NCBI GenBank assembly: GCA_965208615.1
Contig: CBDBPB010000001.1
Location: 32,001 to 96,000, forward strand
Source of the DNA: Spirochaetota bacterium
GTDB lineage: Bacteria; Spirochaetota; UBA6919; CBDBPB01
DNA: 64,000 bases
Reading direction: 5' to 3'
The notes beneath the pieces were generated by a model. That model was not told where the DNA came from. It made no database searches and saw only the letters and a program-made list of their open reading frames with translations. Positions 9,189-64,000 of this stretch are shown here, one piece after another; the stretch's first letter is position 1; the number at the start of each line of letters is the position of its first letter. A program made the position numbers and the translations under genes.

Positions 9189-9506
9189 TTAGCTTTCCCA
9201 GTTATAAATTAGTCTTTCTACTGGTTTTCCATTTTGCATATGACTTTCCACAATTTCTTCTACATCTTTTACTGTTACTTCTTTGTACCACGTAGCCTCA
9301 GGATAAACAACTATAGAGGGACCACTACTGCATGGGCCCATACATGCAGTTGCAGTTACGGATACTTCTCCATATAGATTTCTTTTTTCCATTTCTTCTA
9401 CCAGTTTAACATAAATGTCTTGTGATCTACCCTGACCACAAGATGGTTTAGTCATTGGAGGACGAGTAGTTGTGCAGACAAAAAAATGTTTTTTAAAGTG
9501 GCTCAT
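9189..9506 (-). CDS. Thioredoxin-like [2Fe-2S] ferredoxin
   Basis: HFFVC...SC...ACMGPC..GP.IVVYPE..WY; ATG at 9506 has an AGGAG RBS. Confidence 0.9.
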   Translation of the reverse strand: MSHFKKHFFVCTTTRPPMTKPSCGQGRSQDIYVKLVEEMEKRNLYGEVSVTATACMGPCSSGPSIVVYPEATWYKEVTVKDVEEIVESHMQNGKPVERLIYNWES

Positions 9507-9786
9507 AGGTTCTCCTTTAATATTATCAGCAGACATTAAAAATATAATAACCCTTTAAAAAGTTGTAATACTATTTATATCCTAAAAAGTAATATTATTT
9601 TAATAAAGGTTTACGATTTACATTAGTTTAAATTATACTAACCTAATATAGATTAAAGAGTTAACTTTAGTTTTACTAAACTGTTAAGAAAATTAGCTAT
9701 ATTAGTATATATAAATCTAGTTAAATATGCAAGAAAGTCAACTTTTATTATTAATAAAAACTTTTAACTCTAAGACAAAAAGGCTC

Positions 9787-10690
9787 CTGATGAAGGTAAA
9801 AAGGTTATGAAAGAGGTTTTTGACAATGGGGATAAATATAAACATGTAGGTTTAGACTTTGAGTTAGGGCTGGTAAATATATTTATTTGTTACTAATTGT
9901 TTTAGTAGTGTAGAGCAAAGGTACTCTAAGGTAATTTATCTTTTTTAAAACTTAAAAAACACAGATTATGAAGTTATAGAAAGTGTTCTGATGAAGGTAA
10001 AAAGGTTATGAAAGAGGTTTTTGACAATGGGGATAAATATAAACATGTAGGTTTAGACTTTGAGTTAGGGCTGGTAAATATATTTATTTGTTACTAATTG
10101 TTTTAGTAATGTAGATAAAAGGTACTCTAAGGTAATTTATCTTTTTTAAAACTTAAAAAACACAGATTATGAAGTTATAGAAAGTGTTCTGATGAAGGTA
10201 AAAAGGTTATGAAAGAGGTTTTTGACAATGGGGATAAATATAAACATGTAGGTTTAGACTTTGAGTTAGGGCTGATAAGCATATTTATTTGTTACTAATT
10301 GTTTTAGTAGTGTAGATAAAAGGTACTCTAAGGTAGTTTATCTTTTTTTAAAACTTAAAAAACACAGATTATGAAGTTATAGAAAGTGTTCTGATGAAGG
10401 TAAAAAGGTTATGAAAGAGGTTTTTGACAATGGGGATAAATATAAACATGTAGGTTTAGACTTTGAGTTAGGGCTGGTAAATATATTTATTTGTTACTAA
10501 TTGTTTTAGTAGTGTAGATAAAAGGTACTCTAAGGTAATTTATCTTTTTTAAAACTTAAAAAACACAGATTATGAAGTTATAGAAAGTGTTCTGATGAAG
10601 GTAAAAAGGTTATGAAAGAGGTTTTTGACAATGGGGATAAATATAAACATGTAGGTTTAGACTTTGAGTTAGGGCTGGTAAATATATTTA
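9787..10690. repeat. Tandem array of about 4.5 copies of a 201-bp unit
   Basis: CTGATGAAGGTAAAAAGGTTATG recurs at 9787, 9988, 10189, 10391 and 10592; units near-identical, no unique spacers. Confidence 0.97.
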
Positions 10691-10742
10691 TTTTTTTGTT
10701 AAGGTTAAAGGGATATTATTTAATAGTTTAGTTATCATTTTA

Positions 10743-10751
10743 TGATAGAAT
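10743..10751 (+). promoter_or_regulatory. Extended -10 promoter-like motif TGaTAGAAT
   Basis: Matches TGnTAnnnT; conserved in the second copy (about 52327-52335); lies just upstream of the conserved core. Confidence 0.4.
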
Positions 10752-10761
10752 TATGGATAGT

Positions 10762-11160
10762 CATACAAGGTAAAAAGGCAAGACATATAACGTAAAGGGA
10801 AGTGAATTCCAGATTTCTTTGTGGAACAGGAAAATTAAAATATTCATGGAAAAGTTATTTCCTTGTGTCAAGCAGGTTATCCCTTTATGCTCTTTAAGTG
10901 CTGCTTAAATGCCTTAGCAATGAACACAAAATATCACTTTTTATGCAAGTAGTCATCACTACGAGAGCTATTAAGAATCCCTTGCTGAGACTAAGGATTA
11001 TAGACCTTTATTAAGTGTTAACGGATTTATTGTTCTATAAAAGGATAGAGCGGATTATTGGAATATTCTATATTGACTTTATGTGTATATTTCTATGGGA
11101 ATTAAAAATAATAGAACAGCTTATACCTATAAAAATTGATTAACTTAGAACGTTTTTACA
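10762..11160 (+). ncRNA. Candidate structured non-coding RNA, family unassigned
   Basis: No long ORF; nested stems (10775-80/10910-15, 10791-800/10880-89, 10807-11/10822-26, 10828-33/10858-63) with G-U pairs on the + strand; duplicated at 52346. Confidence 0.4.
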
Positions 11161-11351
11161 ATAAACTACTAAAACATTTGATAACAAAATGCCCGATAGA
11201 ATGCTTTTTGTTATATTTGCTAAAACGTTTGTTAACAAGTTAGTCCAAAAAAGGAAAAAAAAAAGAAAGAACAAAAATATTGAGTTAACTTCTGATATGC
11301 TTAATGAAGCTACAATATGGATAGAAGGTTTAGATAAAATTCATAGACCTA

Positions 11352-14300
11352 TTATTTGCCTATACTGCCTTCAACCACACTAACTAAACTATCAAACCTA
11401 TCATTAAATAGACTAATCTGACCCGATATTTGTGTCATTGCATCACCCTCTTTAAGCTTACCTAATGCCTTGCCTTTTTTATAAGTAGACCGAATATAGC
11501 TAAGCCTTTCAGCCTCATCTTGACTTAGCCAGCCAATAAGCTCTTTAAACCTAAGAAGGTTAAACTCAGCTCCAGTAGTAAGAAGTTGCGACTCATCAGT
11601 ATAGTGATTCATAATCAACTGATTAAGCTCCTCTTCATTCATAATAGGAACTACTTTTTCAGCCATCTTATTCATATTACGATAAGATCCTTGAAGTAGA
11701 AAGTTAGGCTCAGTTCTATAATCATCATCTTGAGCGGCAGAATATATGTATTGCTGATTAACTTTTAGTATAACATCTTGGATGACCAACAGCTTTTTAA
11801 AAACATTAACAAACTCTTTAACCTCTTCCATGGAATAGCCTTTTTCAAACTGAATACCTTCTGAACTATTAGTTTTGGCTATTTTAATCATTTCATAAAT
11901 ATCATGTTGACTACGAGATGCTAGCTTATTTAGTACAGTGTTGGATGTTAAACAATTCTCAAGATAAGATAAGTTAAAAACCTCTGCATTACCACCAATA
12001 ATATCCCCCAGATTATATGTATCAGCACGGTTAGCAAGCATATCAGGTACTCTAAACTTCTCACCACTTTCTGTATAAGGGTTGCCAGCCATAACAACAG
12101 CTACTTTCTTACCCCTAAGATCATAGGTTTTAGTTCTACCGTTATAAACTCCTTCAATCTTACGCTGAGCATCACACAAAGAGATAAACTTCTGTAAAAA
12201 CTCTGGATTACAATGTTGAATATCATCCAAATATATCATCACATTATTAGCCATCTCAAAAGCAAGGTTAAGCTTTTCAACCTCCTCTCTGGCAGTGGCA
12301 TTAACCGCCTCATCAGGATCAAGAGAACTAACCTGATTACCAATGGCTGGACCATTGATCTTCATAAAAATAATACCCAAACGATTACTAATATATTCCA
12401 TAAGAGTTGTCTTGCCATAACCCGGTGGAGAGATAAGCATAAGAAGTCCCATAAGGTCAGTACGTTTAGCTCCTCCAAAGGCTCCCATTTGCTTGGCAAG
12501 GTTAGTGCCAATTAGAGGTATATAAATTGAGTCAATCAGCCTATTCCGTACAAAAGAACTCATCACCTTAGGCTTAAACTCATTAAGACGCATATCTTCT
12601 TTTTTTGCTTCAGTTAGTTTTCTCTTCAGCTGAACATAGGCTTTATAGCTAGGGACTGACTCCAAATAAAAACTATTCAACCTAATTATAAAATCACTAA
12701 TATCAAGCTTTAGTGTGTGTCCATCAACTCTTGAATGCTGACCTATTATCCCATTAATTGTACAAATGGTATTAACAGGTTTAACAAGGCTTTTATCCAC
12801 AGTCTTTCGTGTTAAAAGGCTAATAGCCTCAATTAAGAAGTTATTTTTAGAGTGATTGTTCTGTTTTTCGTTATCATTATATTTAACAAAATGGAATAAC
12901 CAATCTTGGATTATAAATAGTTTACTTTCCAAGTCTGAGCCAACTGCCTTAATGGATTCAATAAACTTTTTGCTTGGGTCTTTCTTTTTCAAAAACTTTA
13001 TAAATCCAGCATAAATATCATAAGCATACTTAGTTATAGGAAATAAGTCTGACCCATCTTTTAACTTCTCTAAAAGAAAGTCTGGTATTTGTTTGAGATA
13101 GAGATCATTTACTGGCCAGGATAACTCACTAAAAAAGCTATCCACCATTACTCTAAGCTGTTTAGCGTATTCTTGGTGATAGTCCTGACTATCGGTTAAA
13201 GAATTTAAATAGCCAAAAGACTTAATCTTTTCTCTTAGACAAGTCTTATCCTCAGACTCAGGTGAATAATACCAAAAGATAGCTCCATAAGCTCTTGTGG
13301 ATGGGTGAAACCTAAGAATACCTGCCTCTTGTAAAACAGGATGGATAGTGGTTAATATCTTACAGGCATCCTCATCATGGACTCCTTTTTCATAGCCCTC
13401 ATCATATAGCCCTGACATAAAATCCCTAATGGTTTGTAATAATCTAGAGGGATTAGCAATCTGTTCTTTTAGTTCATTCTTTGATATAGGCTTATTCTCT
13501 GTTTCTATGCTGGTTAAGAATTTATAAGCCAAATATTCAGCACGATAAATACTTTTTGTCTCACTTGGCCATTCTTGTTGCCAAAACCTTTTAGTATTAT
13601 TAAAATCATTATCCTTAATCTTTTCAAAGAACTCAGTCCCAGTAAGATGGTAATACATAGACCCATTACGGTTTACAGTAGTAAGATCAAAAGCTTGTGT
13701 GTTAACAGTAAACTTATGGGAGCCAAAGGTAATTATATTACCTCCGTGCTCAAAAAGGTCTAAACGATCTTTTAGCTGTCTTGCACCGTCCTGTTGTAGG
13801 CTTTTTAGCCTACTAACAACCTCTTCAGACTTAACACTATCCCCAAGATCAAAAAGCTGTTTAACTATATCTTTAACCTTAGCTATCATCATATCAGAGG
13901 CAAAATAGCCGTTTAACTCATCAATGGACTTTAAGGTTTTAGTCCTATTGGATATACCCTTAAGAATACGATCAGCAGAGTTCCAAAGGGATATGGTCTT
14001 ACGATTTAGGCTTTCTTGTAATTGAACCTTACGATTGTCAAAGGCACTATATACCTCATTACGTTTTTCAGTTAGCTTTTCAATGTAGTCCTCAAAGTCA
14101 GAAAACTTACCTTCTAAGCTCTCAATCTGAACCATGACCTTAGTAAGAAGCTCTTCACATTTTTCAACGGTATCAGCCTGATCAATAAAGTTAGTCACCG
14201 ACTGATTAATAAGTTTAAACTGAGAAGAGAACTCAGCCTTAGCCTCATTAGAAAAAAGAGCCTTATAATGCTTTTTATGGATCGCCTTAACCTGATTAAT

Positions 14301-16298
14301 CCTAATATATACATTGGATATATTATCAATGATCTGCGAAGTTTGAGTTGAGTCCTCAATCTTAAGGCTGTTAGTTATATCGGTCAGAAGGTCAACACCA
14401 TTATTAAGCTTATTTATCTCTTTGCTCAGCTTTTTAATTTCGGTTACCTTAGAAAGACTAGGAATAGCCTCTTCAAACTTTTTAAGCTTTTCAAAAAAAG
14501 GAGATAAAGCATGTTTTTCCAAAAGAAAATTAACACAGTTTTGTGATATCTTATCATAGCTATCCCCAACTAATTTTTCAATCTCATCAACCCTATTTAC
14601 CTCAACATACCTAAGGTCTTTTAGGGATATAATATGCCCTCTTTGTATTTGAAGCTTGGTTAAGGAATCAACATACTCATCTACAACTAAAAACTTGGCA
14701 TTTTTTATATTGTCGATTAGTTTATTAGTGTCCTCTTCAGCAGAAGATAGGCTCTTTTCAGTGTTTTCTCTTATGGTAACTACTTTTTCGTATTCATCAA
14801 TAGCATCATTAGCAGTAGTTAATATATCTAGTAATATATCCTTAGGAGCAAAAGCCTCTTTATGATCCAGCCAAAAGTGAAGATCAATGGCATTAGTAAC
14901 CTCTTTTGCAATCTGATGATAAATCCCTAAATAAACCTCTGACTTCTGTAAAAGATTATATATACCCCTAAGGTCGGCTATTCCTTTTACCAATTCTTTA
15001 TTCCCAATCTTAGATAAGTGAGAACTACTATCAGCAGTTATTAGGGAAAAATCTTTAACAAAAGGAGTCTGCCATATTTGTATAGCATGACTCTTTTTAG
15101 AATCATTATCCCCCTTGAAGATAACCATTTTCCCGTTGTCATAAATAGAGAAACCATGACATAATAAAGGATTATCCACCTTTTTGCTAATGATGTTATA
15201 TTGGAGTAATATATATTCCCCAAACTCCTCGTTGTAAAAGATATATAAATAGTCCTCCCCATTGGGAGAGATAATTAACTTAAGAAAACTCATATCACTA
15301 ACATCAAGGCTAAAAGCTTTATAGTCCCCACTTTTAAGATAATACCCTTTTGGGAATATTAAGCCATCATCCTCAGGAAGACGAATAGCACATTGTCTAA
15401 TATCATCAACCCTAACCACTTTTTGGGTCTTCTCGTTAAATATAAAATAACGGTACTCCTTTTCCTGATAAGGCAAAATCTTTAATAAAATTATATGCCC
15501 CATTATAGAGTAGTAAATATCAGCATCATCCAAAGTTTGCTCTTTATGAATAACCTCTTCAGAATATATACCATTACCATCCTCAGTGTTATCCTCAACT
15601 TTAATGGTAATATCCCCCCCAACACTCTCTACAAAAACCTTATCCTCAATAGAGACATGAGGAAAACGACCATATATATTTTGCTCTCTAGTGGTTTTTA
15701 TCCATTCAAAGTCAATCTGTGGTGGATAAGAATAGCCCTTTGCCGATCTACTACCAGCATAAGTTAAAGTGTTATCCTGATTGACCTGCCACGTGAATAT
15801 TCTAATATCACTAGCGGACTTACCAGTCTGAAAGATCATAAAAAGATTAGCGTCTTTCTCAATAAACGTATTAAACGAAGTATCACGGTAATATTGGTAT
15901 AATCCATGAAAGTCTTTTATAAAGTTCTGATCGTTTAGTAAGTTATTCTCAAGGATACTAAAACTGTTATCCTTCATCTCATACAGACTAAATACATCAG
16001 AGACCTTCATCTCTTTCTTTAAACCAATAAAAACATTATATCCAAAAAGAAGCTTATTCCCAAGAGAAAACATATCTCTTGCTACACAGGTGTTATCAGT
16101 AATTATACGATCAGTAGCAATAATCTTATTCTCAAGAACACCAAAAGCCTCTTTTCTTTTTTCATTAAGTTTGTTAACCCTCTCAAAAAGCTGATTGCTA
16201 TAAGCCAAAAGCCTTTTTCGTATTATCTCATAAGCCCCACTCTCAAGGGTTTGTTCATCAGTAGTCTCATCTTGATTTAATATATTTTGTTTAGCCAT
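11352..16298 (-). CDS. Giant 'DNA repair ATPase' (DUF3686-type) AAA+ protein
   Basis: N-terminal GAYEIIRKRL, beta-rich domain, long coiled coil, Walker A PPGYGKTT, Walker B IYLDDIQH, GNPYTESG, PDMLANRAD. Confidence 0.88.
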   Translation of the reverse strand: MAKQNILNQDETTDEQTLESGAYEIIRKRLLAYSNQLFERVNKLNEKRKEAFGVLENKIIATDRIITDNTCVARDMFSLGNKLLFGYNVFIGLKKEMKVSDVFSLYEMKDNSFSILENNLLNDQNFIKDFHGLYQYYRDTSFNTFIEKDANLFMIFQTGKSASDIRIFTWQVNQDNTLTYAGSRSAKGYSYPPQIDFEWIKTTREQNIYGRFPHVSIEDKVFVESVGGDITIKVEDNTEDGNGIYSEEVIHKEQTLDDADIYYSIMGHIILLKILPYQEKEYRYFIFNEKTQKVVRVDDIRQCAIRLPEDDGLIFPKGYYLKSGDYKAFSLDVSDMSFLKLIISPNGEDYLYIFYNEEFGEYILLQYNIISKKVDNPLLCHGFSIYDNGKMVIFKGDNDSKKSHAIQIWQTPFVKDFSLITADSSSHLSKIGNKELVKGIADLRGIYNLLQKSEVYLGIYHQIAKEVTNAIDLHFWLDHKEAFAPKDILLDILTTANDAIDEYEKVVTIRENTEKSLSSAEEDTNKLIDNIKNAKFLVVDEYVDSLTKLQIQRGHIISLKDLRYVEVNRVDEIEKLVGDSYDKISQNCVNFLLEKHALSPFFEKLKKFEEAIPSLSKVTEIKKLSKEINKLNNGVDLLTDITNSLKIEDSTQTSQIIDNISNVYIRINQVKAIHKKHYKALFSNEAKAEFSSQFKLINQSVTNFIDQADTVEKCEELLTKVMVQIESLEGKFSDFEDYIEKLTEKRNEVYSAFDNRKVQLQESLNRKTISLWNSADRILKGISNRTKTLKSIDELNGYFASDMMIAKVKDIVKQLFDLGDSVKSEEVVSRLKSLQQDGARQLKDRLDLFEHGGNIITFGSHKFTVNTQAFDLTTVNRNGSMYYHLTGTEFFEKIKDNDFNNTKRFWQQEWPSETKSIYRAEYLAYKFLTSIETENKPISKNELKEQIANPSRLLQTIRDFMSGLYDEGYEKGVHDEDACKILTTIHPVLQEAGILRFHPSTRAYGAIFWYYSPESEDKTCLREKIKSFGYLNSLTDSQDYHQEYAKQLRVMVDSFFSELSWPVNDLYLKQIPDFLLEKLKDGSDLFPITKYAYDIYAGFIKFLKKKDPSKKFIESIKAVGSDLESKLFIIQDWLFHFVKYNDNEKQNNHSKNNFLIEAISLLTRKTVDKSLVKPVNTICTINGIIGQHSRVDGHTLKLDISDFIIRLNSFYLESVPSYKAYVQLKRKLTEAKKEDMRLNEFKPKVMSSFVRNRLIDSIYIPLIGTNLAKQMGAFGGAKRTDLMGLLMLISPPGYGKTTLMEYISNRLGIIFMKINGPAIGNQVSSLDPDEAVNATAREEVEKLNLAFEMANNVMIYLDDIQHCNPEFLQKFISLCDAQRKIEGVYNGRTKTYDLRGKKVAVVMAGNPYTESGEKFRVPDMLANRADTYNLGDIIGGNAEVFNLSYLENCLTSNTVLNKLASRSQHDIYEMIKIAKTNSSEGIQFEKGYSMEEVKEFVNVFKKLLVIQDVILKVNQQYIYSAAQDDDYRTEPNFLLQGSYRNMNKMAEKVVPIMNEEELNQLIMNHYTDESQLLTTGAEFNLLRFKELIGWLSQDEAERLSYIRSTYKKGKALGKLKEGDAMTQISGQISLFNDRFDSLVSVVEGSIGK

Positions 16299-19980: not shown

Positions 19981-20637
19981 TTAATCTATATCATTAATAA
20001 TTAGGCGAGTTTCGTCTTGAGATATTACACGACGAATTGCCTCATCATTAAGTTGACCCTTTTTCTGTTTAGTATTTTCAGTATTTTTCTGTTTAGTATT
20101 TTCAGTATTTTTCTGTTTAGTATTTTCAGTATTTTTCTGTTTAGTATTTTCAGTATTTTTCTGTTTAGTATTTTCAGTTTTAACATTATTTGATGACTTA
20201 TTAGCGAGACGTTGTTGAACATTATTTCTTTTTATAGTATTTCTTTTTATTTTGGTCTTATATAGTTTAGTTTTATATAGAGTTGAAGATTTTATACTTT
20301 TGGGTATATTATTGTTTTGAATAGGTTGTTCTTCCTTATTAGTAAGATTATCATTATTAGGAAGGTTATCATTTTTTATAATTATTTGATTATTTTTTTC
20401 ATTATTTAGTTTATCTGTATTTTCTTTGTTTACGACTACGTTATTAGTCTCAATTAATTTTTTAGATTTATTAGAACTTTCACTACTAAGATCGCCTATT
20501 TTATCATAATCATAAGAATAAATATACTCTAAGTAACTACGTATACTAACAATAGATAATATTATAATAGCTAAAAATAGTATTACTCTTTTATAAGGCG
20601 ACCTTTTTTTAATAGGTTTTGTAAAAAGACCACTCAT
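19981..20637 (-). CDS. Membrane-anchored low-complexity protein with 8-aa tandem repeat
   Basis: N-terminal TM, Asn/Lys-rich, (TENTKQKN) about 5 times. Confidence 0.7.
   Translation of the reverse strand: MSGLFTKPIKKRSPYKRVILFLAIIILSIVSIRSYLEYIYSYDYDKIGDLSSESSNKSKKLIETNNVVVNKENTDKLNNEKNNQIIIKNDNLPNNDNLTNKEEQPIQNNNIPKSIKSSTLYKTKLYKTKIKRNTIKRNNVQQRLANKSSNNVKTENTKQKNTENTKQKNTENTKQKNTENTKQKNTENTKQKKGQLNDEAIRRVISQDETRLIINDID
20061..20178. repeat. 24-bp coding VNTR, about 5 copies
   Basis: TTTTCTGTTTAGTATTTTCAGTAT repeated with period 24. Confidence 0.95.
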
Positions 20638-28797: not shown

Positions 28798-29598
28798 CTA
28801 ATATACTATATCTTTTATTATATGCCTACCAACTTTATCTATCCTAGCCCACAAGGATAGCTTTGCTTTAACATCAATGTTTATATTTTTATGTTTAACA
28901 CTATTATTAAGCTTAGCTATATCAGGATTATCTTTAATCCATCTAATAACGTTATCCAAAGGTAATACCCCACCCCAAAGATCGTTGTATATTCTTTTAC
29001 AAAGGTCATAATCAATTTGCTCATCAACGGTCAAGCGTATGTCAGCCCTAAACTTAGAGGGTACTAAAACCTCTACTATCCTAAATAAATGAGGATTATT
29101 AGATATAAATAAACTAGCCACATGTTCTTTATCCTCTTTAGTGTTAGTCAGGTTATACGCCCTATAAAATGCCCTCTTAGACATTACAAACTGCCCATCC
29201 AGCATAGAGCCAGCATCACTCCATACTAAATCGCCATCAAAGCTCTTTAAGGCTATAATTTGTTCATCAATGAAGTCAGCACTAACAAAAGGCGAATCAC
29301 CAGTTACCCTAACAACATAATCATATTGAGGATTACGGTCAATAATATTTTTAAACCTGCTAAAAACATCATCCAAACTACCCCTATAATAACTAATATT
29401 AGCCTTTTCTAAAAAGCTAACCAGAGGATCATCACTAACATCCAAAGAAGTGGCAACAATAATCTTCTTTAGCAACTTAGACAAAGTTAACCTTTTATGG
29501 ATATGCCATATAATAGGCTTATTGACAATGGGTAGTAAAACCTTAGATGGGAGCCTGGTTGAGGATAGTCTCGCCTGTATTATAGCAATAGCATCCAA
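28798..29598 (-). CDS. SpsF-like cytidylyltransferase family protein
   Basis: IIQARLSSTRLPSKVL, RGSLDDV, RVTGDSP, RLTVD; TTG start. Confidence 0.88.
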   Translation of the reverse strand: MDAIAIIQARLSSTRLPSKVLLPIVNKPIIWHIHKRLTLSKLLKKIIVATSLDVSDDPLVSFLEKANISYYRGSLDDVFSRFKNIIDRNPQYDYVVRVTGDSPFVSADFIDEQIIALKSFDGDLVWSDAGSMLDGQFVMSKRAFYRAYNLTNTKEDKEHVASLFISNNPHLFRIVEVLVPSKFRADIRLTVDEQIDYDLCKRIYNDLWGGVLPLDNVIRWIKDNPDIAKLNNSVKHKNINIDVKAKLSLWARIDKVGRHIIKDIVY

Positions 29599-29613
29599 AA
29601 TATAATAACTCTA

Positions 29614-30449
29614 TTAGTCTTTTAAAAAACTATTATTAATAAAGGTATAAGTCCTTTTAGCAATTAAATATAGCCACTTATTTTTGGTTAGTAAAACACC
29701 AAAATACCTTTTAAACTTTGTCTCTCTAATAAGCTCTTTTTCTTTTCCAATTAAAACATCACATAAATTCTCTTTATAAACATCTATATGGTTGTTTATT
29801 ATTTGCCTATATAGCCTTAAACGATCACTCTCACCAATAACTGACCTAGAGTCTTTTAGCTTTCTATAATTAAATAGTAGTTCATTAATAGTATGAATAT
29901 GCCATCCATGCTTGGTAACACTAATAAAGAAGTTCCAATCTTCATATTCTGTATCCATATTAGAGTTATATCCCCCAGCTTGCTCCCAACACTTTTTTCT
30001 ATATAAAGAACTACTAGCAGAAGGATGACTTAAAAGAGCCTCTTTTATAGTCCCTCCAGATGGGTACCACTCAAAATATCTATACCCATAAGCCCTAACC
30101 CACATGTAACAATACCAATCTCTGGCTTATTATCCAAAACATAGACTGCCCTATATAAAAAACTAGGTTCAAAGGTATCATCGGCATCCAAGGTTAGAAT
30201 ATATTCACCAACAGCCCTTTTGATAGCAGTATTCCTAGCAACAGATAGTCCCTCATTCTCTTTATTTATAACAAAGGTTTTAGGCTTATCATATTGTTTA
30301 AGCTTATTATTGGTAAGTTCATCAGTTGATCCGTCATTAACAATAATAATCTCAAAATCTTTAAATGTTTGATTTAAAATACTATCAACAGCCTCATCAA
30401 TATACTTTCCGTGATTATAACAGGGTATAATAACCGATACTTTAGGCAA
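29614..30449 (-). pseudogene. GT2 glycosyltransferase, copy A, frameshifted
   Basis: VSVIIPCYN, VNDGSTD, LDADD, EDW; one C missing near 30099 relative to copy B. Confidence 0.8.
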
Positions 30450-30801
30450 ACCTTAACCTCCATAAACTAATTTATAATCTTTTACCATTTGCTAATGAAT
30501 TAAAATGCTTACAATTAGCAATAAGATAGTCATAACTACCCGAACAAATAACCTTTATCAGGTGTATATTTAGCATGGTTAAACCCTGATAACCATATAA
30601 TTCTTAATAAAATAGCGACTACTAAGGTAATCCAAAAAGCTTTATTCCATTTTTTTAAAGTGTAACTTTGTATAATTATTCTTTAAAATGAAATCAACAG
30701 TAACAAAGGATTAATCACCTGTGATCCTAACTATATAATCATCCTCTTGATAAAAGCCCTGCCTGTACTATAGCAATAGTATCCAAAATATAATAACTCT
30801 A

Positions 30802-31640
30802 TTAGTCTTTTAAAAAGCTATTATTAAGAAAGGTATAAATTCTTTTAGTAATCAAATATAGCCACTTATTTTTGGTTAGTAAAACACCAAAATACCTTTT
30901 AAACTTTGTCTCTCTAATAAGCTCTTTTTCTTTTCCAACTAAAACATCACATAAATTCTCTTTATAAACATCTATATGGTTGTTTATTATTTGCCTATAT
31001 AGCCTTAAACGATCACTCTCACCAGTAGCTGACATTGAGTCTTTTAACTTTCTATAGTTGAATAGTAGTTCATTAATAGTATGAATATGCCATCCATGCT
31101 TGGTAACGCCAATATAAAAGTCCCAGTCTTCATATGCAGTATCCATATTAGAGTTATACTCACCAGCCTGCTCCCAACACTTTTTCCTATATAAAGAATT
31201 ACCAACTAGCAGGATGACCTAAAAGAGCCTCTTTTATAGTCCCTCCAGATGGGTACCACTCAAAATATCTATACCCATAAGCCCTAACCCCACATGTAAC
31301 AATACCAATCTCTGGCTTATTATCCAAAACATAGACTGCCTTAGATAAAAAACTAGGTTCAAAAACTATCATCAGCATCCAAGGTTAGAATATACTCACC
31401 AACAGCCCTTTTGATAGCAGTATTCCTAGCAACAGATAGTCCCTCATTCTCTTTATTTATAACAAAGGTTTTAGGCTTATCATATTGTTTAAGCTTATTA
31501 TTGGTAAGTTCATCAGTTGATCCGTCATTAACAATAATAATCTCAAAATCTTTAAATGTTTGATTTAAAATACTATCAACAGCCTCATCAATATACTTTC
31601 CGTGATTATAACAGGGTATAATAACCGATACTTTAGGCAA
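30802..31640 (-). pseudogene. GT2 glycosyltransferase, copy B, two frameshifts
   Basis: Same N-terminus as copy A; +1 near 31361 (A run) and +1 near 31204. Confidence 0.8.
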
Positions 31641-31662
31641 ACCTTAACCTCCATAAACTAAT

Positions 31663-38983: not shown

Positions 38984-41179
38984 ATGAAAAAGCTATTGTA
39001 TATCACATCTGTTATTTTATTGCTTTTTATATTTAGTCACAGCTGTACTAAAAAGCATATCAAACCACCTATAGAACATATTAGTAGTGCTAAGCTTGTA
39101 TTAAATCTTACTAATAAAGGATATTATATCACCACTAAGGAGGGCAAGGTAATTACTGAAAAAAAAGATAGGGTAATAAACTTATGGGACATTGACAACC
39201 GCAGTATAAAACCTATTAAAATTAGAGGTAACTATATTTATGATGCTTCATTTTCTCCTAATGGAAAGAAAATCATTATAGCAAGGAGCGATGGAAAGAT
39301 AACTTTATGGAATATAAAAGATTGTAATAAGTTTTATAATTTTGAAGGACATACAGGTAATGTTTTTAAAGCCATTTTTTTACGAAATAGTAAAAAGGCT
39401 ATTTCTGGCGGCGATGACGGCAGTATCAGAGTATGGGATACACTAAACCATAGACTAATAAAAACATTAAAGGGTCATTCATTTTTTATAAACTCTTTAT
39501 CATCCTCTCCAAAAAGTCATTATGCTGTATCAGGTGGTGCAGACAAGATCATCAGGCTATGGGATTTAAAAAAAGAAAAAGAAATTGCAAAACTAAAAAA
39601 GCATACTGGTACTATACTTAGTTTAGCTTTTTCTCCTGATGGAAATAGTATTATATCAGGGGGGAGTGATGGAAAGATAAATCTTTGGAGTATTAAAAAA
39701 AGACGTTTAATAAAAACTTTTAATGGTCATAATGGTTCTGTATTTGCGGTTTCCTTCATGCCAAAACATAATAGTATTATATCTGGCAGTGATGACGGAG
39801 ATATAAAAATATGGAATATAAATAATACTAAAACATTAAAAACTTTTAAAAGTAATTCTATGGTAAGAAGTGTATCTCCATCTAAGATTAGCAACAAGTT
39901 TTTATCAGCAGGAGGAGATAACCTTGTAAGGCTATGGAATACAAGTGGTTATCTTCCTAGTAAATCTATTAAGAGTAAAAAAGGGAATATTTATTCAGTA
40001 GCTATAACTCCCAAAGGTAATAAGGGAATATCGGGGAGCGAGGATGGTGAACTAAAAATATGGGACTTAAATAATGGAAATATTATTAAAACATTTAAGG
40101 CTCACTCAGGTTCTATATTTAGTGTAGCCTTATCTCCCGATGGAAAAACTGCATTGACTGGTGGAAGTGATAGTTTGGTTAAGCTTTGGGATCTAAAAAA
40201 CTATAAGCTTGTTAAAACTTTTAAAGGACATACTGGTATTGTTTATAGTACTACTTTTTCTCCCGATGGAAAAACTGCTCTAACTGGAAGCTTTGATAAA
40301 ACTATAAAACTATGGGATTTAAATAATAAGAAATTAATAAGAACTTTTAAAGGCCATACTTATAGGGTATCCAGTGTTACTTTTTCTCCAGACGGAAAAA
40401 CAGCTCTATCTGGCAGTGAGTCTATTATACTCTGGGATGTATCTACTGGTAGTATTATAAGAAAGTTTAAAGGGTATTTTTATTTTTATCCCATTTCTAC
40501 TGTAGCCTTTTCTCCCGATGGTAAAACTGCAGTATCTGGCGGAGCAGATAAAAATATTAGACTTTGGAATGTTAAGACTGGTAGTACTATTAAAATATTT
40601 AGAGGTCATTCCAGCGATATTAGTAGTGTAATATTCACTTCTGATGGGACTAAGATTATATCCGGCAGTAGGGATAAAACTATAAAGCTCTGGAATATTA
40701 AAACTGGAAAGCTCATTAAAACTCTAAAGGGCCATGATGCTCATGTACACAGTATTGCAGCCACTCCTGATGGTAAGAAGTTTATATCAGGAAGTTCCGA
40801 TAAGAAAATTAACATTTGGAATTTAGAAAAAATGAAAAAGAGTATAAGGCTTTTTAAAGGTCATACTTCTTTAGTTTTTAATGCTTTATTTTCTCCCAAT
40901 GAGAAGTTTATTATATCCTCCAGCATGGACGGAACCATAAAACTATGGAATCTTAAGACTAACTTTGTAACTACACTATATCATATTAGGTGGATAGAAC
41001 AAAAAAAGAGATATTCCGAGTGGATAATAGTATCCTCAGATGGATATTGGACTTCTTCAAAATGTAAAAACACTCAGATTAGTAAAATCAATGATAATAG
41101 GCTAAAGCACAGAAAAAAGACAATGTCTATTAAGGATAACCGTTCAGATATTATATTAAGACGTATAAATAAAAACTAA
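38984..41179 (+). CDS. WD40-repeat protein, probable lipoprotein
   Basis: AAGGAG RBS, MKK...SHSC signal, about 14 GH....V..SPDG....SGS.D..I.LW repeats. Confidence 0.92.
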   Translation: MKKLLYITSVILLLFIFSHSCTKKHIKPPIEHISSAKLVLNLTNKGYYITTKEGKVITEKKDRVINLWDIDNRSIKPIKIRGNYIYDASFSPNGKKIIIARSDGKITLWNIKDCNKFYNFEGHTGNVFKAIFLRNSKKAISGGDDGSIRVWDTLNHRLIKTLKGHSFFINSLSSSPKSHYAVSGGADKIIRLWDLKKEKEIAKLKKHTGTILSLAFSPDGNSIISGGSDGKINLWSIKKRRLIKTFNGHNGSVFAVSFMPKHNSIISGSDDGDIKIWNINNTKTLKTFKSNSMVRSVSPSKISNKFLSAGGDNLVRLWNTSGYLPSKSIKSKKGNIYSVAITPKGNKGISGSEDGELKIWDLNNGNIIKTFKAHSGSIFSVALSPDGKTALTGGSDSLVKLWDLKNYKLVKTFKGHTGIVYSTTFSPDGKTALTGSFDKTIKLWDLNNKKLIRTFKGHTYRVSSVTFSPDGKTALSGSESIILWDVSTGSIIRKFKGYFYFYPISTVAFSPDGKTAVSGGADKNIRLWNVKTGSTIKIFRGHSSDISSVIFTSDGTKIISGSRDKTIKLWNIKTGKLIKTLKGHDAHVHSIAATPDGKKFISGSSDKKINIWNLEKMKKSIRLFKGHTSLVFNALFSPNEKFIISSSMDGTIKLWNLKTNFVTTLYHIRWIEQKKRYSEWIIVSSDGYWTSSKCKNTQISKINDNRLKHRKKTMSIKDNRSDIILRRINKN

Positions 41180-49737: not shown

Positions 49738-50109
49738 TTGTCTTCTCCTATTAACATTATTTACAGATTATTAACTCATACACTGATATATCTTAAACAC
49801 CCAATGTAATATTTAACTATAATGATTATCCAGCATACAAATTGTCAAATTATCATTCAAAACAATATATGTTATTTTTGAGGCTTAAGTATAATAAAAA
49901 AAAGATCTATCGACAAGGTCTTTACTACACTTATGTATATCTATATTCTAAAATATACCATAATTATTGAAGAATTATGGTATTAATTGTTTTACTAGTG
50001 TAGAAAGGTATTATAAGCTATCTTATATTCATAGAGCTTACTAAAATATAAATAAAACCTATTTAGCAATTGTCTTTAAATAATTCTTTACTTAAAAATT
50101 AGTAACAAC

Positions 50110-50232: not shown

Positions 50233-51765
50233 TTATGGCTTAAGGAGCTTCTTTATTTCGTCAGTTTTTGCTATATCAAGTGGAGTTCTGCCTTTTTTAT
50301 CTTTTATATTAATATTGGCTCCTTTAGATAGTAATAATTTAACAACCTTTGGACGTTCATATTTAACAGCCATAAATAAAGGAGTTTTGCCTTTTTTATC
50401 TTTTTTATTAATCTTAGCTCCTTTAGACAGCATCATGCTAACAAACTCTGCCTTTCCATATTTAGAAGCCACATGTAAAGAAGTTTTGCCATGTTTTTTA
50501 CTTGCGGCATTAACCTTAGCCCCTTTAGATATTAATAATAGTCCAGTCTTTGTATGCCCATGTTCAGCGGCCTCATATAGAGGAGCGTTACCCTTCTTTA
50601 CAGTTGCTACATTAACTTTAGCCCCTTTAGATATTAATAACTTAGCTACCTCTGTCTTTCCAAACTCACTAGCCACATGTAAAGGGGTCCAACCACGATT
50701 TTCTTTTGCATTGACCTTAGCCTTATTAGATATTAATGATTTGGTTATCTTTACATCCCCCCAAAAAGAGGCCCTATGTAAAGGTGTATAACCGGTTTTA
50801 TCCTTTGCATTAACATTGGCTCTATTAGATATTAATAGATTAACAATTTCTGGAAGTTCGCTAATAACAGCCAGATGTAAAGGAGAGTTACCAAGAGCAT
50901 CTGCTGCATTAACATCGGCTTTTTTAGATATTAATAATTTAACAGCCTTTGAACGTCCATGTTGAACAGCCATCAATAAAGGAGTTCTGCTTTTTTTATC
51001 TTTTTTATTAACCTCAGCTCCTTTAGATAGTAATAAGCTAATAACCTTAGTTTTTCCATACTTAGAAGCCACATGTAAAGAAGTTTTGCCATGCTTTTTA
51101 CTTGCTCCATTAATCTTAGCTCCTTTAGATAATAAAAACTTGATTACTTCTATATGTCCATGCTCAGCGGCCTCATATAAAGGAGCGTTACCCTTTTTAG
51201 TCTCTATATCAACCTCAACGCCCTTATCTATTAATAATTTGACTACCTCTAACTTTCCAAACTCACCAGCTATATGTAAAGGACTCCAGCCACGATCATC
51301 AGGCTCAGCAACCTTAGCACCTTTATCTACTAATAACTTGGCAGTATTTATATCTCCACTATTAGCAACCCTATGTAAAGGAGTATTACCGGTTTTATCT
51401 TTTGCATTAACTTCAGCTCCTTTATTTATTAATAACTTGGCAACTTCTGGATGCCTACTAATAATAGCATTATGTAAAGGAGTATTACCAAATTCACCTA
51501 CTGCATTAACCCCAGCTCCCTTAGAAAGTAATAGTTGAGCTATCTTCATATCACCATTACCAGCAGCCATGTGTAAAAAAGTATTACCATTTTTGTCTGA
51601 TACATTAACCTCAGCTCCTTCACTTATTAACTTTTCTACTATTTTATAGTCGTTAGCTAAATTGTTAGTACTACTTTTAGATACTGATGTCTTTTTTGAT
51701 TGTCCACAATTTAGTACTAACGAAAAAGTTAACAAAAAGGTAATCACTGTGAGTAATTTTTTCAT
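50233..51765 (-). CDS. Ankyrin-repeat lipoprotein (about 14 repeats)
   Basis: MKK...VLNC signal; G.TPLH.A...G......LL..GA.VN repeats. Confidence 0.95.
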   Translation of the reverse strand: MKKLLTVITFLLTFSLVLNCGQSKKTSVSKSSTNNLANDYKIVEKLISEGAEVNVSDKNGNTFLHMAAGNGDMKIAQLLLSKGAGVNAVGEFGNTPLHNAIISRHPEVAKLLINKGAEVNAKDKTGNTPLHRVANSGDINTAKLLVDKGAKVAEPDDRGWSPLHIAGEFGKLEVVKLLIDKGVEVDIETKKGNAPLYEAAEHGHIEVIKFLLSKGAKINGASKKHGKTSLHVASKYGKTKVISLLLSKGAEVNKKDKKSRTPLLMAVQHGRSKAVKLLISKKADVNAADALGNSPLHLAVISELPEIVNLLISNRANVNAKDKTGYTPLHRASFWGDVKITKSLISNKAKVNAKENRGWTPLHVASEFGKTEVAKLLISKGAKVNVATVKKGNAPLYEAAEHGHTKTGLLLISKGAKVNAASKKHGKTSLHVASKYGKAEFVSMMLSKGAKINKKDKKGKTPLFMAVKYERPKVVKLLLSKGANINIKDKKGRTPLDIAKTDEIKKLLKP

Positions 51766-51917
51766 TTTAAAGCCTCCTTAAAGATATATTTATTTTATTA
51801 ATAAAATATCAATAAAAGAGTGAAAAAGCAAATAGCTATTTATGGACAACATTAGTCAGTTAATCATCTATGCCACAAAAAGTAAACTTAATATTTACCT
51901 AATTATTACATAATAAT

Positions 51918-52770
51918 TGTTATCGATTGTTTTAGTAGTGTAGAAAGGCATTATAAGTTAGTTTATCTTTCTAAAACTTCCTAGTTAACATTTTTAATAA
52001 AAAAATAGTTTTTTTATTAAAAATGAGCTAATTTATAAAGTTAAATTTTAAAAATAACAAAACAGGGTAGGAGAAGGCGGGGCTATTTATAATAATGAAG
52101 AGCAAAAGTATTCTAAGGTAATTTATCTTTTTTTAAAACTTAAAAAACACAGATTATGAAGTTATAGAAAGTGTTCTGATGAAGGTAAAAAGGTTATGAA
52201 AGAGGTTTTTGACAATGGGGATAAATATAAACATGTAGGTTTAGACTTTGAGTTAGGGCTGATAAGCATATTTATTTTTTTGTTAAGGTTAAAGGGATAT
52301 TATTTAATAATTTAGTTATCATTTTATGATAGAATTATAACGAGGCATACAAGGTAAAAAGGCAAGACATATAACGTAAAGGGAAGTGAATTCCAGATTT
52401 CTTTGTGGAACAGGAAAATTAAAATATTCATGGAAAAGTTATTTCCTTGTGTCAAGCAGGTTATCCCTTTATGCTCTTTAAGTGCTGCTTAAATGCCTTA
52501 GCAATGAACACAAAATATCACTTTTTATGCAAGTAGTCATCACTACGAGAGCTATTAAGAATCCCTTGCTGAGACTAAGGATTATAGACCTTTATTAAGT
52601 GTTAACGGATTTATTGTTCTATAAAAGGATAGAGCGGATTATTGGAATATTCTATATTGACTTTATGTGTATATTTCTATGGGAATTAAAAATAATAGAA
52701 CAGCTTATACCTATAAAAATTGATTAACTTAGAACGTTTTTACAATAAACTACTAAAACGCTTGATAACA
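51918..52770. mobile_element. Putative non-autonomous element (MITE-like), copy 2
   Basis: Left TGTTATCGATTGTTTTAGTAGT, right ACTACTAAAACGCTTGATAACA; 52099-52770 homologous to about 10515-11186. Confidence 0.6.
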
Positions 52771-52839
52771 AATTGTATCCCATTTGAGTAAATAATAAAT
52801 AAATAAAACCTAAAATAATCCTAATTATGAATGTATTAT

Positions 52840-62938: not shown

Positions 62939-64000
62939 TCAATCTATATCAGAACCCTTTTTAGCCCCCTTAGACCTTAAGAGCTTAATAGTAGCTGTAT
63001 GCCCCTCTTCAATAGCCATGTCTAATGGAGTCTCACCATTCTTATTTTTAATATTAACATTAGCCCCCTTAGATATTAATAATCTAACTGTTTTTGTATG
63101 GCCACTAGAAGCAGCCCAATGTAAAGGAGTAAAGCCGTATTTATCTTGTACATTAACATTAGCACCCTTAGATATTAATAACTTAACAACCTTTGTACGC
63201 CCCTTTTCAATAGCACTATGTAAAGGAGTATAGCCGTATTTATTTACTACATTAACATTAGCACCCTTAGATATTAATAACTTAACAACCTTTGTACGCC
63301 CCTTTTCAATAGCACTATGTAAAGGAGTATAGCCGTATTTATCTTTTACATTAACATTAGCACCCTTGGATATTAATAACTTAACAATCTTTGTACGCCC
63401 CTTTTCAATAGCCCAACTTAAAGGAGTCCAGCCATATTTACTTACTCCATTAACATTAGCCCCCTTAGATATTAATAACTTAACAACCTTTGTACGCCCC
63501 CTTTCAATAGCCCTATGTAAAGGAGTATAGCCATTTTTACTTGCTACATTAACATTAGCACCCTTGGATATTAATAATCTAACTGTTTTTGTATGGCCAC
63601 TATCAGCAGCCCAATGTAAAGGAGTATAGCCATCTTTACCTGCTAAATTAACCTTAGCACCCTTAGATATTAACAACTTAACAACCTTTGTACGCCCTTC
63701 TATAGCAGCCCTATGTAAAGGAGTAAAGCCAAATATACTTACTACATTAACCTTAGCACCCTTAGATATTAATAATCTAACTGTTTTTGTATGGCCACTA
63801 TCAGCAGCCCTATGTAAAGGAGTAAAGCCGTATTTATCTTGTACATTAACATTAGCACCCTTAGATATTAATAATCTAACTGTTTTTGTATGCCCCCTAT
63901 CAGCAGCCTCATGTAAAGGAGTAAAGCCGTATTTATTTACTACATTAACCTTAGCACCCTTAGATATTAATAGTCTAACTGTTTTTGTATGCCCCTTTTC
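62939..64000 (-). CDS. Ankyrin-repeat protein, 5' end outside the window
   Basis: Frame stays open from 63676 to the window edge; about 10 tandem 99-bp repeats. Confidence 0.95.
   Translation of the reverse strand, partial: EKGHTKTVRLLISKGAKVNVVNKYGFTPLHEAADRGHTKTVRLLISKGANVNVQDKYGFTPLHRAADSGHTKTVRLLISKGAKVNVVSIFGFTPLHRAAIEGRTKVVKLLISKGAKVNLAGKDGYTPLHWAADSGHTKTVRLLISKGANVNVASKNGYTPLHRAIERGRTKVVKLLISKGANVNGVSKYGWTPLSWAIEKGRTKIVKLLISKGANVNVKDKYGYTPLHSAIEKGRTKVVKLLISKGANVNVVNKYGYTPLHSAIEKGRTKVVKLLISKGANVNVQDKYGFTPLHWAASSGHTKTVRLLISKGANVNIKNKNGETPLDMAIEEGHTATIKLLRSKGAKKGSDID

Follow-up and report, generated by a model that had tools for sequence, protein, structure and literature searches.

A gene-free, probably MITE-like mosaic repeat family with inverted ends and internal tandem arrays in a Spirochaetota genome

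How does a gene-free element that leaves no target-site duplication and has no partner enzyme come to occupy nearly 50 sites in one bacterial genome, with some copies 97-99% alike? The question is raised by a locus in contig CBDBPB010000001.1 of a Spirochaetota bacterium (assembly GCA_965208615.1), within a stretch of 64,000 nucleotides that is called the window here. An earlier note on this DNA had described a two-copy repeat with inverted ends. The repeat is real, and its extent was understated. On balance, we consider that it probably belongs to a lineage-restricted, non-autonomous, MITE-like mosaic element family with an internal minisatellite, now an orphan in its genome. The family is unusual rather than revolutionary.

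A similarity search of the organism's own genome recovered 47 copies of at least 150 bp on seven of the nine contigs, together with six shorter relics. The family totals 37,025 bp (about 37 kb, or 1.51% of the 2.46 Mb genome) and is the deepest and most abundant repeat in it. Minimal copies are about 600-700 bp; overall, sizes lie between about 0.6 kb and, where arrays are present, 1.9 kb. The element at C2:82k (contig and approximate position) measures 1,961 bp. All follow a general plan that reads, 5' to 3', as a left end motif, a modular 5' region, an ORF-free core of about 410 bp, a 3' module of one of two alternative types, and an optional extension of about 50 bp; the 3' module of each copy closes with the inverted end motif. 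Mean pairwise identity of the core among the 35 near-full copies is 87%. Relative to replication, 31 copies have one orientation and 16 the other, a bias against the G-rich strand; this is too weak for single-strand transposition to be argued from it.

The end motif, M, is TTGTTA-N6-GTTYTAGTRG and spans 22-28 bp. It stands at the left end of each copy and, inverted, at the right end. The exact string GTTA-N6-GTTTTAG occurs 61 times in the genome (about 3.7 are expected from composition), and 49 of these sites lie in or beside family copies. With at most one mismatch, the 22-mer is found 40 times in this genome; the reversed control has no occurrence, and none of the 12 relatives has more than one. 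In the copy at C1:370.2-371.0k, identical 22-mers stand at both ends, which read alike over about 28 nt. For copy 1 of the window, re-reading the sequence upheld the proposed inverted 28-mers, which match at 23 of 28 positions, and an inverted-repeat search returned arms of 58 nt at 10490-10547 and 11131-11188 that are 71% complementary. The inverted ends themselves are thus as proposed, but conservation reaches out to TTGTTA...TAACAA, one base beyond the TGT...ACA of the earlier description. Within a copy, the N6 at one end does not complement that at the other, so that the ends appear to keep sequence blocks rather than pairing. M may be the binding site of a recombinase or transposase acting in trans.

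The features of the two copies in the window are collected in Table 1. The family-homologous body of copy 1 covers 9788-11236 (homology reaches +553, which is 11236), and its first array unit is truncated, beginning at about unit position 103. The left end had been placed at 10492. A motif is indeed present there (from 10491), but it is the last of four inside the array; elsewhere, in copies with a single unit, this motif is where the element truly begins on the left. As proposed, copies 1 and 2 cease to be homologous at 11186, but copy 1 continues for about 50 bp and ends near 11238. This extension is common to copy 1 and 13 other copies, and four solo occurrences were also found. A direct-repeat search confirmed the second copy in the same orientation at a spacing of 41,584 bp. 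The likeness of the two cores extends over positions 2-504, and a locus-particular stretch of 107 bp precedes the single 5' unit of copy 2.

Table 1. Positions of family features in the 64,000-nucleotide window.
Feature	Position	Strand	Remarks
Copy 1, 5' tandem array	9779-10682	+	4.5 units of 201 bp, 97-99% alike; TRF period 201, 98% matches
Copy 1, first of four direct M motifs in the array (TTGTTA-N6-GTTTTAGTAG)	9887-9908	+	window motif scan
Copy 1, further M motifs in the array	10088-10109, 10289-10310	+	window motif scan
Copy 1, innermost M, last of four	10491-10512	+	left end in the earlier note
Copy 1, conserved ORF-free core	10683-11093	+	about 410 bp, common to 35 near-full copies
Copy 1, most conserved part of core	10897-11087	+	41-copy alignment, 92% mean column identity, many invariant columns
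Copy 1, 3' module type A	11094-11165	+	alignment of 3' parts
Copy 1, inverted M motif R1	11166-11187	-	right end in the earlier note; real right terminus of copy 2 and other short copies
Copy 1, 3' extension module	11188-11238	+	copy 1 really ends here, in a second M-like motif, inverted (11217-11238, -)
Solo M with adjacent-module fragment	49977-50043	+	79% like 51918-51983; far side of ankyrin gene
Copy 2, left-end M	51917-51938	+	upstream flank unrelated to other copies
Copy 2, single 5' unit	52087-52265 (C1:84087-84265)	+	unit positions 23-200, 94%
Copy 2, core	52267-52677	+	98% identical to copy 1
Copy 2, inverted M, right terminus	52750-52771	-	without extension module

Homology between copies breaks off sharply at either side. 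In nearly all of the 47, no other copy matches the bins beyond about +600, and left flanks are unique except in five to six copies beside a paralogous gene family (PMP genes). Where flanks are unrelated, TTGTTA marks the left junction to the base. The boundaries first seen in the window recur through a family of 47 copies, and the proposal of a multi-copy family that is unannotated, lacks genes, and has sharply bounded, inverted ends was borne out genome-wide. Element-free sites were also sought, and the organism's own genome provided paralogous ones for two copies. Four tandem paralogues lack the 974 bp element of C1:271k, with an exact left junction (CTAACC|TTGTTAC), and two paralogues lack the 1,961 bp element, whose right junction immediately follows GTTTGTTAAC(GCC). 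Both comparisons are with diverged paralogues, each clean on one side only, and deletion instead of insertion could account for them as well. Together, the unrelated flanks between copies and the paralogous sites without the element suggest that it behaves as a discrete inserted unit. At copy 2, contig sets from three read runs were compared. One spans the locus and is probably the source sample; of the other two, one yielded short, low-depth family fragments only and the other next to nothing. From these three sets, two of them near-empty of the family, neither an empty site nor a strain polymorphism was read at copy 2.

DDE transposition would leave a target-site duplication. The earlier note had seen no clear duplication, and the same holds for the 25 copies in which both ends were recognised: the longest repeats shared by the two flanks follow the distribution seen in shuffled flank pairs, with one 6-mer case where 0.4 are expected. 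Classical DDE cut-and-paste is therefore not indicated, since no duplication was left. Elements with rve-type DDE enzymes (Tn7, Mu, IS21, IS481, and IS3) have 5'-TG...CA-3' termini and a duplication of fixed length. An attribution to the Tn7/Mu/IS21/IS481 types had been suggested, and these do resemble the present family in having several end-site-like motifs, direct at one end and inverted at the other. The attribution does not hold, because here there is no rve gene and no duplication, and the termini are TTGTTA...TAACAA rather than TG...CA.

The search for a partner enzyme in the organism's own genome, which is 99.4% complete, covered 15 transposase and recombinase Pfam families and 93 neighbouring proteins. 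Thirteen of the 15 families had no match; this small genome, of which the family makes up 1.5%, otherwise appears almost free of mobile DNA. PF00665 (rve) gave none, while the control was positive in six of 14 reference genomes. PF01797 (Y1 transposase) and PF07282 (TnpB) gave none each, and with neither enzyme in the genome an IS200/IS605-derived element (PATE, REP/RAYT, or omega-RNA carrier) was rejected. The only finds were XerC, XerD, and one broken IS1595-like gene. A transposase gene flanked by the same ends, which would mark an autonomous copy, was also looked for, and none turned up. The 72 inverted motif pairs without a core are mostly weak and enclose ordinary genes such as transporters; two tight pairs enclose a citrate transporter and an amino-acid permease.

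The IS1595-like gene is interrupted by an in-frame stop, and the family copy at C3:161k is about 3 kb away from it, as might be expected if the family were a decayed known gene, insertion sequence, or phage segment spread by segmental duplication. This origin is very improbable. Neither M-like nor other clear inverted ends surround the gene, and in the family every frame is closed, the longest ORF conserved across copies being 23 aa. Comparison by blastn with 72,556 plasmid and 50,697 phage records showed no similarity, and conserved 25-27-mers had no exact match in genome, metagenome, and viral contig collections. Segmental duplication could cover at most the five to six copies by PMP genes, since flanks are otherwise unique. 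Relatives were examined by two means, blastn (40 genomes) and the end-motif pattern (the 12 genomes mentioned above), and the family was absent from all 40 searched with blastn.

The housekeeping recombinases XerC and XerD are another candidate for moving the family. The dif modules of Acinetobacter plasmids carry no transposase, have inverted 28 bp sites as their borders, and produce no duplication. No site-specific recombinase besides XerD and XerC turned up here, and modules moved by these two, like dif modules or integrative elements exploiting Xer, would share with this family the inverted sites of about 28 bp (a conserved block, six variable bases, and a second block) and the lack of duplication; tandem units with one site each are what repeated site-specific integration is expected to give. 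The form of the sites speaks against Xer. The host's dif candidate (C6:152790-152817), which sits exactly at the GC-skew switch of its contig, has the canonical ATAA-N6-TTATGT, and M shares none of that form; and, unlike Xer arms, the two blocks of M do not form an inverted repeat. Circles of 201 bp or 74 bp would probably also be short for recombinase synapsis. Xer-dependent modules (dif modules, IMEX) were rejected for the unlikeness of M to the 11-6-11 type, with conserved inner arms, of the dif candidate, and we give this explanation hardly any credence.

Arrays stand directly upstream of the core at 18 of the 47 loci, with units of 74-318 bp in 2-15 copies (TRF), and the unit often includes the left end motif. 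Unit length varies between the 18 loci, and within a locus the units are 93-100% uniform, which fits expansion after insertion. The 3' module is of type B in place of type A in about half of the copies. Mosaicism is indicated by the copies at C4:92k and C4:132k, which share a core (99.3% identity) and the same 74 bp array but have different 3' modules.

These observations are most readily united by the non-autonomous, MITE-like reading. Discrete units bounded by the 22-28 bp inverted motif would have entered some 40 unrelated intergenic sites. The enzyme that moved them would not be of the classical DDE kind and would either have been lost from the genome, leaving an orphan or fossil family, or belong to an unrecognised class. 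After insertion, the 5' part, often with the left end motif, may expand locus by locus into minisatellite arrays, presumably by replication slippage or unequal exchange. By recombination, copies would exchange their 3' parts (type A for B) and gain or lose the extension; the 97-99% likeness of some copies would be due to gene conversion among those that lie near each other.

Conservation of the core raises the question of whether it has a function of its own. Its centre is far more conserved than its edges, the variability of 60-nt windows ranging from 2.4% to 13.7%; this peak may reflect a function of the core or gene conversion weighted towards its centre. No ORF of at least 40 aa occurs in the core before 11015. 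Variability by codon position in three ORFs of 20-23 aa was 0.091/0.053/0.030, 0.020/0.055/0.075, and 0.033/0.029/0.026, with no consistent third-position excess to indicate protein-level constraint, and a type I toxin-antitoxin repeat (LDR-like) was rejected because no small ORF shows such constraint.

An RNA had been suggested as the cargo, and the copies could in principle be structured non-coding RNA genes, with inverted ends that pair into a long-range stem enclosing the RNA and serving its processing. The core has no ORF and is strongly conserved, and the lack of a clear third-position excess in the small ORFs places this conservation at the nucleotide level; moreover, one 120-nt core window (alignment columns 100-220, + strand) had an SCI of 0.55 and a z-score of -2.6. 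Most of the evidence, however, opposes a structured RNA. Rfam gave no match at gathering score (a chance 5.8S match had an E-value of 5.7), z-scores of minimum free energy were 0.06 (+) and -0.21 (-), and the SCI was at most 0.61 in all windows on both strands. RNAalifold on 41 copies gave -3.81 kcal/mol, with compensatory changes at none of 21 pairs; changes in the small hairpin GTAGT/ACTAC disrupt pairs instead of compensating, and the non-complementary N6 tell against a pairing of the ends. The suggestion thus found no support, and structured RNA genes are an improbable explanation. A search for complementarity of the core to other RNAs or genes returned only family relics and chance 14-19-mers, and an 11-mer common to the core and the PMP-gene repeat was judged a coincidence.

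The invariant part of the core (about 130-190 bp) also admits an undescribed bacterial mechanism, in which spread would depend on that part and the arrays would be traces of repeated self-targeted integration of the element into its own end. The core might then work as an RNA without structure, serving as guide or template, or in cis as the site of a host enzyme of an unrecognised kind. We regard such a mechanism as a long shot.

Neighbouring genes here are functionally diverse (FlaA, PF04620, is among them) and share no common function. Gaps with at least one gene start hold 44 of the 47 copies, and only three lie between convergent genes; the downstream gene is co-oriented in 27 of 46 cases. 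At ten of the 12 loci of the Chlam_PMP-repeat surface-protein family an element lies within 0.7-4.6 kb, and the upstream genes listed for PMP-linked copies are divergent. The element had been described as carrying a promoter, which a sigma-70 scan did not reproduce, finding none on the + strand inside 10492-11186; over 9500-11400 it returned five sites against 10.8 expected from shuffles. A sigma-28 reading of the 3' extension (CCCGATAA-like) was rejected by eye, as the spacing to the TAAA box is 4 nt too long.

The copies could be regulatory or architectural modules of the host, with M as the operator of a cellular DNA-binding protein and each copy kept for its effect on its neighbours. In that case the arrays would offer many binding sites side by side or stacked promoters, and the core would act in cis or encode an unstructured RNA. 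The placement beside gene starts and PMP loci agrees with this, as do the more conserved core centre (41 copies at 92% column identity), the M-like motifs that flank the two transporter genes, and at least two of the four solo 3' extensions, which have a ribosome-binding site and start codon a few tens of bases downstream. Promoter activity is also described for BrickBuilt segments (PMC4596501). The weak co-orientation, the lack of a common function among neighbours, and the absence of a consensus sigma-70 promoter on the element's + strand point the other way. The PMP association is explicable by duplication of gene and element together, as left flanks are common to five to six copies, and absence from 40 relatives beside 47 copies here is more typical of selfish DNA. 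A host function is possible, and we consider it rather unlikely.

If its enzyme was lost, the family would be an orphan MITE-like one that is still evolving through array expansion, module exchange, and gene conversion; if the enzyme exists, it is unrecognised, and M is a bait for finding it. The repeats and their arrays are likely break points in short-read assemblies of this lineage, and the arrays are variable-number markers for strain typing.

Several known systems share parts of this anatomy. Classical bacterial MITEs (Correia/NEMIS, RUP, ERIC, and MITEAba12) have a target-site duplication and a parent insertion sequence. The present family resembles them in being short, AT-rich, non-coding, intergenic, and multi-copy, with terminal inverted repeats. 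It differs in having no target-site duplication and no parent insertion sequence among the 15 families searched, in its larger size (0.6-1.9 kb), and in a centre that is more conserved than the ends, where most MITEs show the opposite. Neisserial intergenic mosaic elements and the BIMEs of Escherichia coli consist of modules of 20-150 bp without a long conserved core, and their multiplication is tied to IS110-like or RAYT enzymes. Interchangeable intergenic modules, short inverted repeats at the borders, and tandem repetition are common to them and to this family, whereas here a long core is present and neither IS110-like nor RAYT enzymes were found in the organism's own genome.

The closest published analogue is BrickBuilt, a minisatellite-containing MITE of Porphyromonas gingivalis with a unit of 23 nt, whose ends match resident IS5-family elements and whose promoter activity was measured (PMC4596501). 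Here the unit is 74-318 bp, differs between loci, and usually contains the left end motif; there is no resident element with the same ends, a strongly conserved core of about 410 bp follows the array, and promoters were addressed by a consensus scan only, negative on the + strand. Both families are gene-free, always intergenic, and confined to one species group, with tens of copies of which many are partial, and in both a tandem array of variable number lies between a "leader" and a "tail" that bear small inverted ends.

The element described in the earlier note from two copies belongs to a much larger family. In the window's own genome (2.46 Mb, nine contigs, 99.4% complete), a 504 bp core query gave 57 matches, and blastn identified 47 copies of at least 150 bp on seven of the nine contigs, besides six shorter relics. 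The core is near-complete in 35 copies (mean pairwise identity 87%, range 77-99.3%). Counting bases common to at least eight other copies, the family occupies 37,025 bp (1.51% of the genome), and genome self-comparison shows it to be by far the deepest repeat. A non-autonomous mobile family, as first proposed, is somewhat favored as the best available interpretation, whereas the DDE attribution, promoter, and RNA cargo proposed with it are not supported.

The left end motif, M, is TTGTTA-N6-GTT(T/C)TAGT(A/G)G, and the sequence before TTGTTA is unrelated from copy to copy. M is followed by a modular 5' region of ~190 bp and a core of ~410 bp. In 18 of the 47 loci, a tandem array amplified from part of the 5' region lies immediately 5' of the core. 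Arrays have 2-15 copies of units of 74, 110, 137, 144-146, 156-169, 201-208, 222, 263, or 318 bp; units are 93-100% uniform per locus, and their boundaries vary among loci. Most units contain M, which is absent from those of 144-146 bp. The core is followed by either of two unrelated 3' modules (~70 bp), each of which terminates in inverted M (CTACTAAAAC-N6-TAACAA). Fourteen copies carry a further 3' extension of ~50 bp that closes with another inverted M-like site plus the palindrome TTGTTAAC. This extension also occurs alone at four sites, at two or more of which it precedes a start codon and its ribosome-binding site by a few tens of bases; it may therefore serve as a promoter or operator or have been co-opted as one.

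Copy 1, placed at 10492-11186 by the earlier note, lies between two minus-strand genes, in a gap whose right edge contains its only ORFs of at least 40 aa (three, 42-64 aa). An inverted-pair search recovered its inverted 28-mers, which match at 23 of 28 positions, and copy 2 does share its orientation and lie 41,584 bp downstream, with cores 98% identical. The left 28-mer is present, but rather than a single end it is the fourth and last direct M copy in an array. Likewise, the reported stop of homology at 11186 is true between the two window copies, but family homology of copy 1 continues to 11236-11238; the stop arose because copy 2 (right end 52771) does not have the 3' extension of copy 1.

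Features of the window (plain positions) and of contigs C1-C9 of its genome
Feature	Position	Strand	Remark
2Fe-2S ferredoxin gene	9189-9536	minus	Left neighbor of copy 1 gap
Intergenic gap	9537-11351		Contains copy 1
Copy 1 tandem array	9779-10682		4.5 x 201 bp
Direct M copies, copy 1 array	starts 9887, 10088, 10289, 10491		Motif scan of window
DUF3686/AAA ATPase gene	11352-16298	minus	1,648 aa; right neighbor of copy 1 gap
Perfect 24 bp tandem repeat	20036-20205		~6 copies; probably encodes an 8 aa repeat on the minus strand
Tandem duplication, ~1.19 kb	29559-31661		94-99% identity; repeat families D8, D9, D13, D14
WD40-repeat gene	39251-40957		126 bp periodicity; a WD40 protein also flanks the element copy at C1:406k
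Ankyrin-repeat gene	50296-51775	minus	510 aa; 99 bp periodicity; flanked by two direct M-plus-module fragments, 49977 and 51917
Ankyrin-repeat gene	62961-64000		99 bp periodicity
Tandem paralogous gene units	C1:265.2-271.0k		About five, ~1.1-1.4 kb each; element only at outermost
Chlam_PMP-repeat gene	C2:78727-80679		Locus L080
IS1595-type gene	C3:157399-158350		In-frame TAA; zinc ribbon and DDE domain
Solo 3' extensions	C4:114761-114793, C7:139126-139170, C7:363261-363294, C9:41515-41550
Canonical dif-like 28-mer	C6:152790-152817		Exactly at GC-skew sign change (~+0.2 to ~-0.2); probably replication terminus and XerCD site
FlaA flagellar outer-sheath protein gene	C7:336.6-337.8k		PF04620; L114:3276-4403 (locus handle); adjoins element; suggests a spirochaete-like host

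Several observations indicate that the motif is more frequent than by chance and that the elements are discrete. Exact GTTA-N6-GTTTTAG occurs 61 times in the genome (~3.7 expected), with 49 of the 61 in or beside elements. Genome-wide, the 22-mer end with at most one mismatch was found 40 times, 20 per strand, compared with none for the reversed motif and 0-1 in each of 12 relatives. All-against-all comparison from -2500 to +1200 around each copy showed right-flank homology to zero other copies past ~+600 in nearly all 47; left-flank homology also falls to zero beyond the array, the exceptions being 5-6 copies adjacent to a family of paralogous genes. Element-free paralogous sites were found at two loci. 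The 974 bp element at C1:271k, carried only by the outermost of the tandem gene units there, is missing from four tandem paralogues and has an exact left junction (CTAACC|TTGTTAC, where empty sites read TTGTAACAA). At C2:82k, a 1,961 bp element is missing from two paralogues, and the right junction is directly 3' of GTTTGTTAAC(GCC). Insertion is the simpler, though unproven, reading of these sites, since only one side of each comparison is clean and paralogue similarity is ~80%.

The lack of a clear target-site duplication reported earlier holds for the family. Among 25 copies with both ends placed (outer 10 bases each side), the longest flank repeat was distributed as in 200 flank-pair shuffles: repeats of length 2, 3, 4, and 6 were observed 8, 11, 4, and 1 times (shuffles 6.8, 11.8, 4.5, and 0.4). 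There was also no duplication at C1:370k, where identical 22-mers are at both ends. Fifteen Pfam transposase/recombinase families were searched in the genome, and positive controls matched every time. Thirteen had no match in this 99.4% complete assembly (rve, DDE_Tnp_1, TnpB zinc ribbon, Y1_Tnp, DDE_3, Resolvase, RVT_1, IS110, Transposase_31, IS256, ISL3, IS66, and DDE_Tnp_1_6). DDE_Tnp_IS1595 matched one gene, which lacks M-like ends and any other clear inverted ends; this only transposase-like gene found is ~3 kb from an element copy. Phage_integrase matched two genes, assigned by NCBIfam as XerD (above cut-off) and XerC/XerD-like, the latter adjoining topA and hslVU. These recombinases are very improbable movers of the elements: M is unlike the candidate dif site, and neither of its two blocks is the inverse of the other. 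No transposase gene with the same ends was found among 72 coreless inverted motif pairs in the genome, which are mostly weak; the two tight pairs enclose a citrate transporter and an amino-acid permease. The Tn7/Mu/IS21/IS481 attribution thus fails on three defining points: no duplication and no rve enzyme were found, and the termini are TTGTTA...TAACAA rather than TG...CA.

Results for the core do not point to an RNA. Rfam had no match at gathering score (one chance match, E 5.7), and single-sequence fold z-scores were 0.06 for one strand and -0.21 for the other. Among 27 non-redundant copies, SCI values in an RNAz-like scan did not exceed 0.61, with one plus-strand window at z -2.6 (SCI 0.55) and three lower-energy minus-strand windows (z -2.7 to -3.2). 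RNAalifold of the most conserved 191 nt in 41 copies gave -3.81 kcal/mol, with compensatory changes in 0 of 21 pairs. Three ORFs of 20-23 aa are kept in 28-33 of 35 copies, with no consistent third-position excess. The core is not evenly conserved: columns vary by 2.4-3.8% over the middle ~120 nt and by 8-14% nearer the edges. Either constraint at the sequence level or gene conversion that is strongest at the center may account for this.

Every copy is intergenic, and flanking genes are tandem in either direction (15 each), divergent (13), or convergent (3). The 93 proteins encoded by flanking genes cover diverse functions, including chaperones, tRNA synthetases, flagellar proteins, transporters, and repeat proteins. 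Chlam_PMP-repeat genes are the exception; 10 of 12 multi-repeat loci are 0.7-4.6 kb from an element, an association due in part to co-duplication because flanks are shared. These genes, several of them fragmented, have 4-16 tandem repeats of ~26 aa and are on contigs C2, C3, C4, and C8. The closest copies are often physically near (C4:92k and C4:132k, 99.3%; window copies, 98.3%; C7:2.6k and C7:24k, 97.5%), a pattern compatible with spread over short distances or with gene conversion. Module exchange is shown by C4:92k and C4:132k, which have the core and 74 bp array in common but different 3' modules.

The family appears narrowly distributed. It was absent by blastn from 40 relatives, the nearest sharing only order, and no match came from exact scans of three sequence collections or from phage and plasmid records; low-depth fragments of the family were present in a second sample from the same study. 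The interesting part is the element's mode of movement. In literature on such spirochaete elements and on MITEs with internal tandem repeats (main texts outside subscription journals), none was closer than BrickBuilt, a Porphyromonas gingivalis MITE with an internal minisatellite (PMC4596501). Compared with BrickBuilt, the family here is without a target-site duplication or a resident element bearing matching ends, and it has long, locus-specific repeat units, an end motif within the repeated unit, and a long conserved core.
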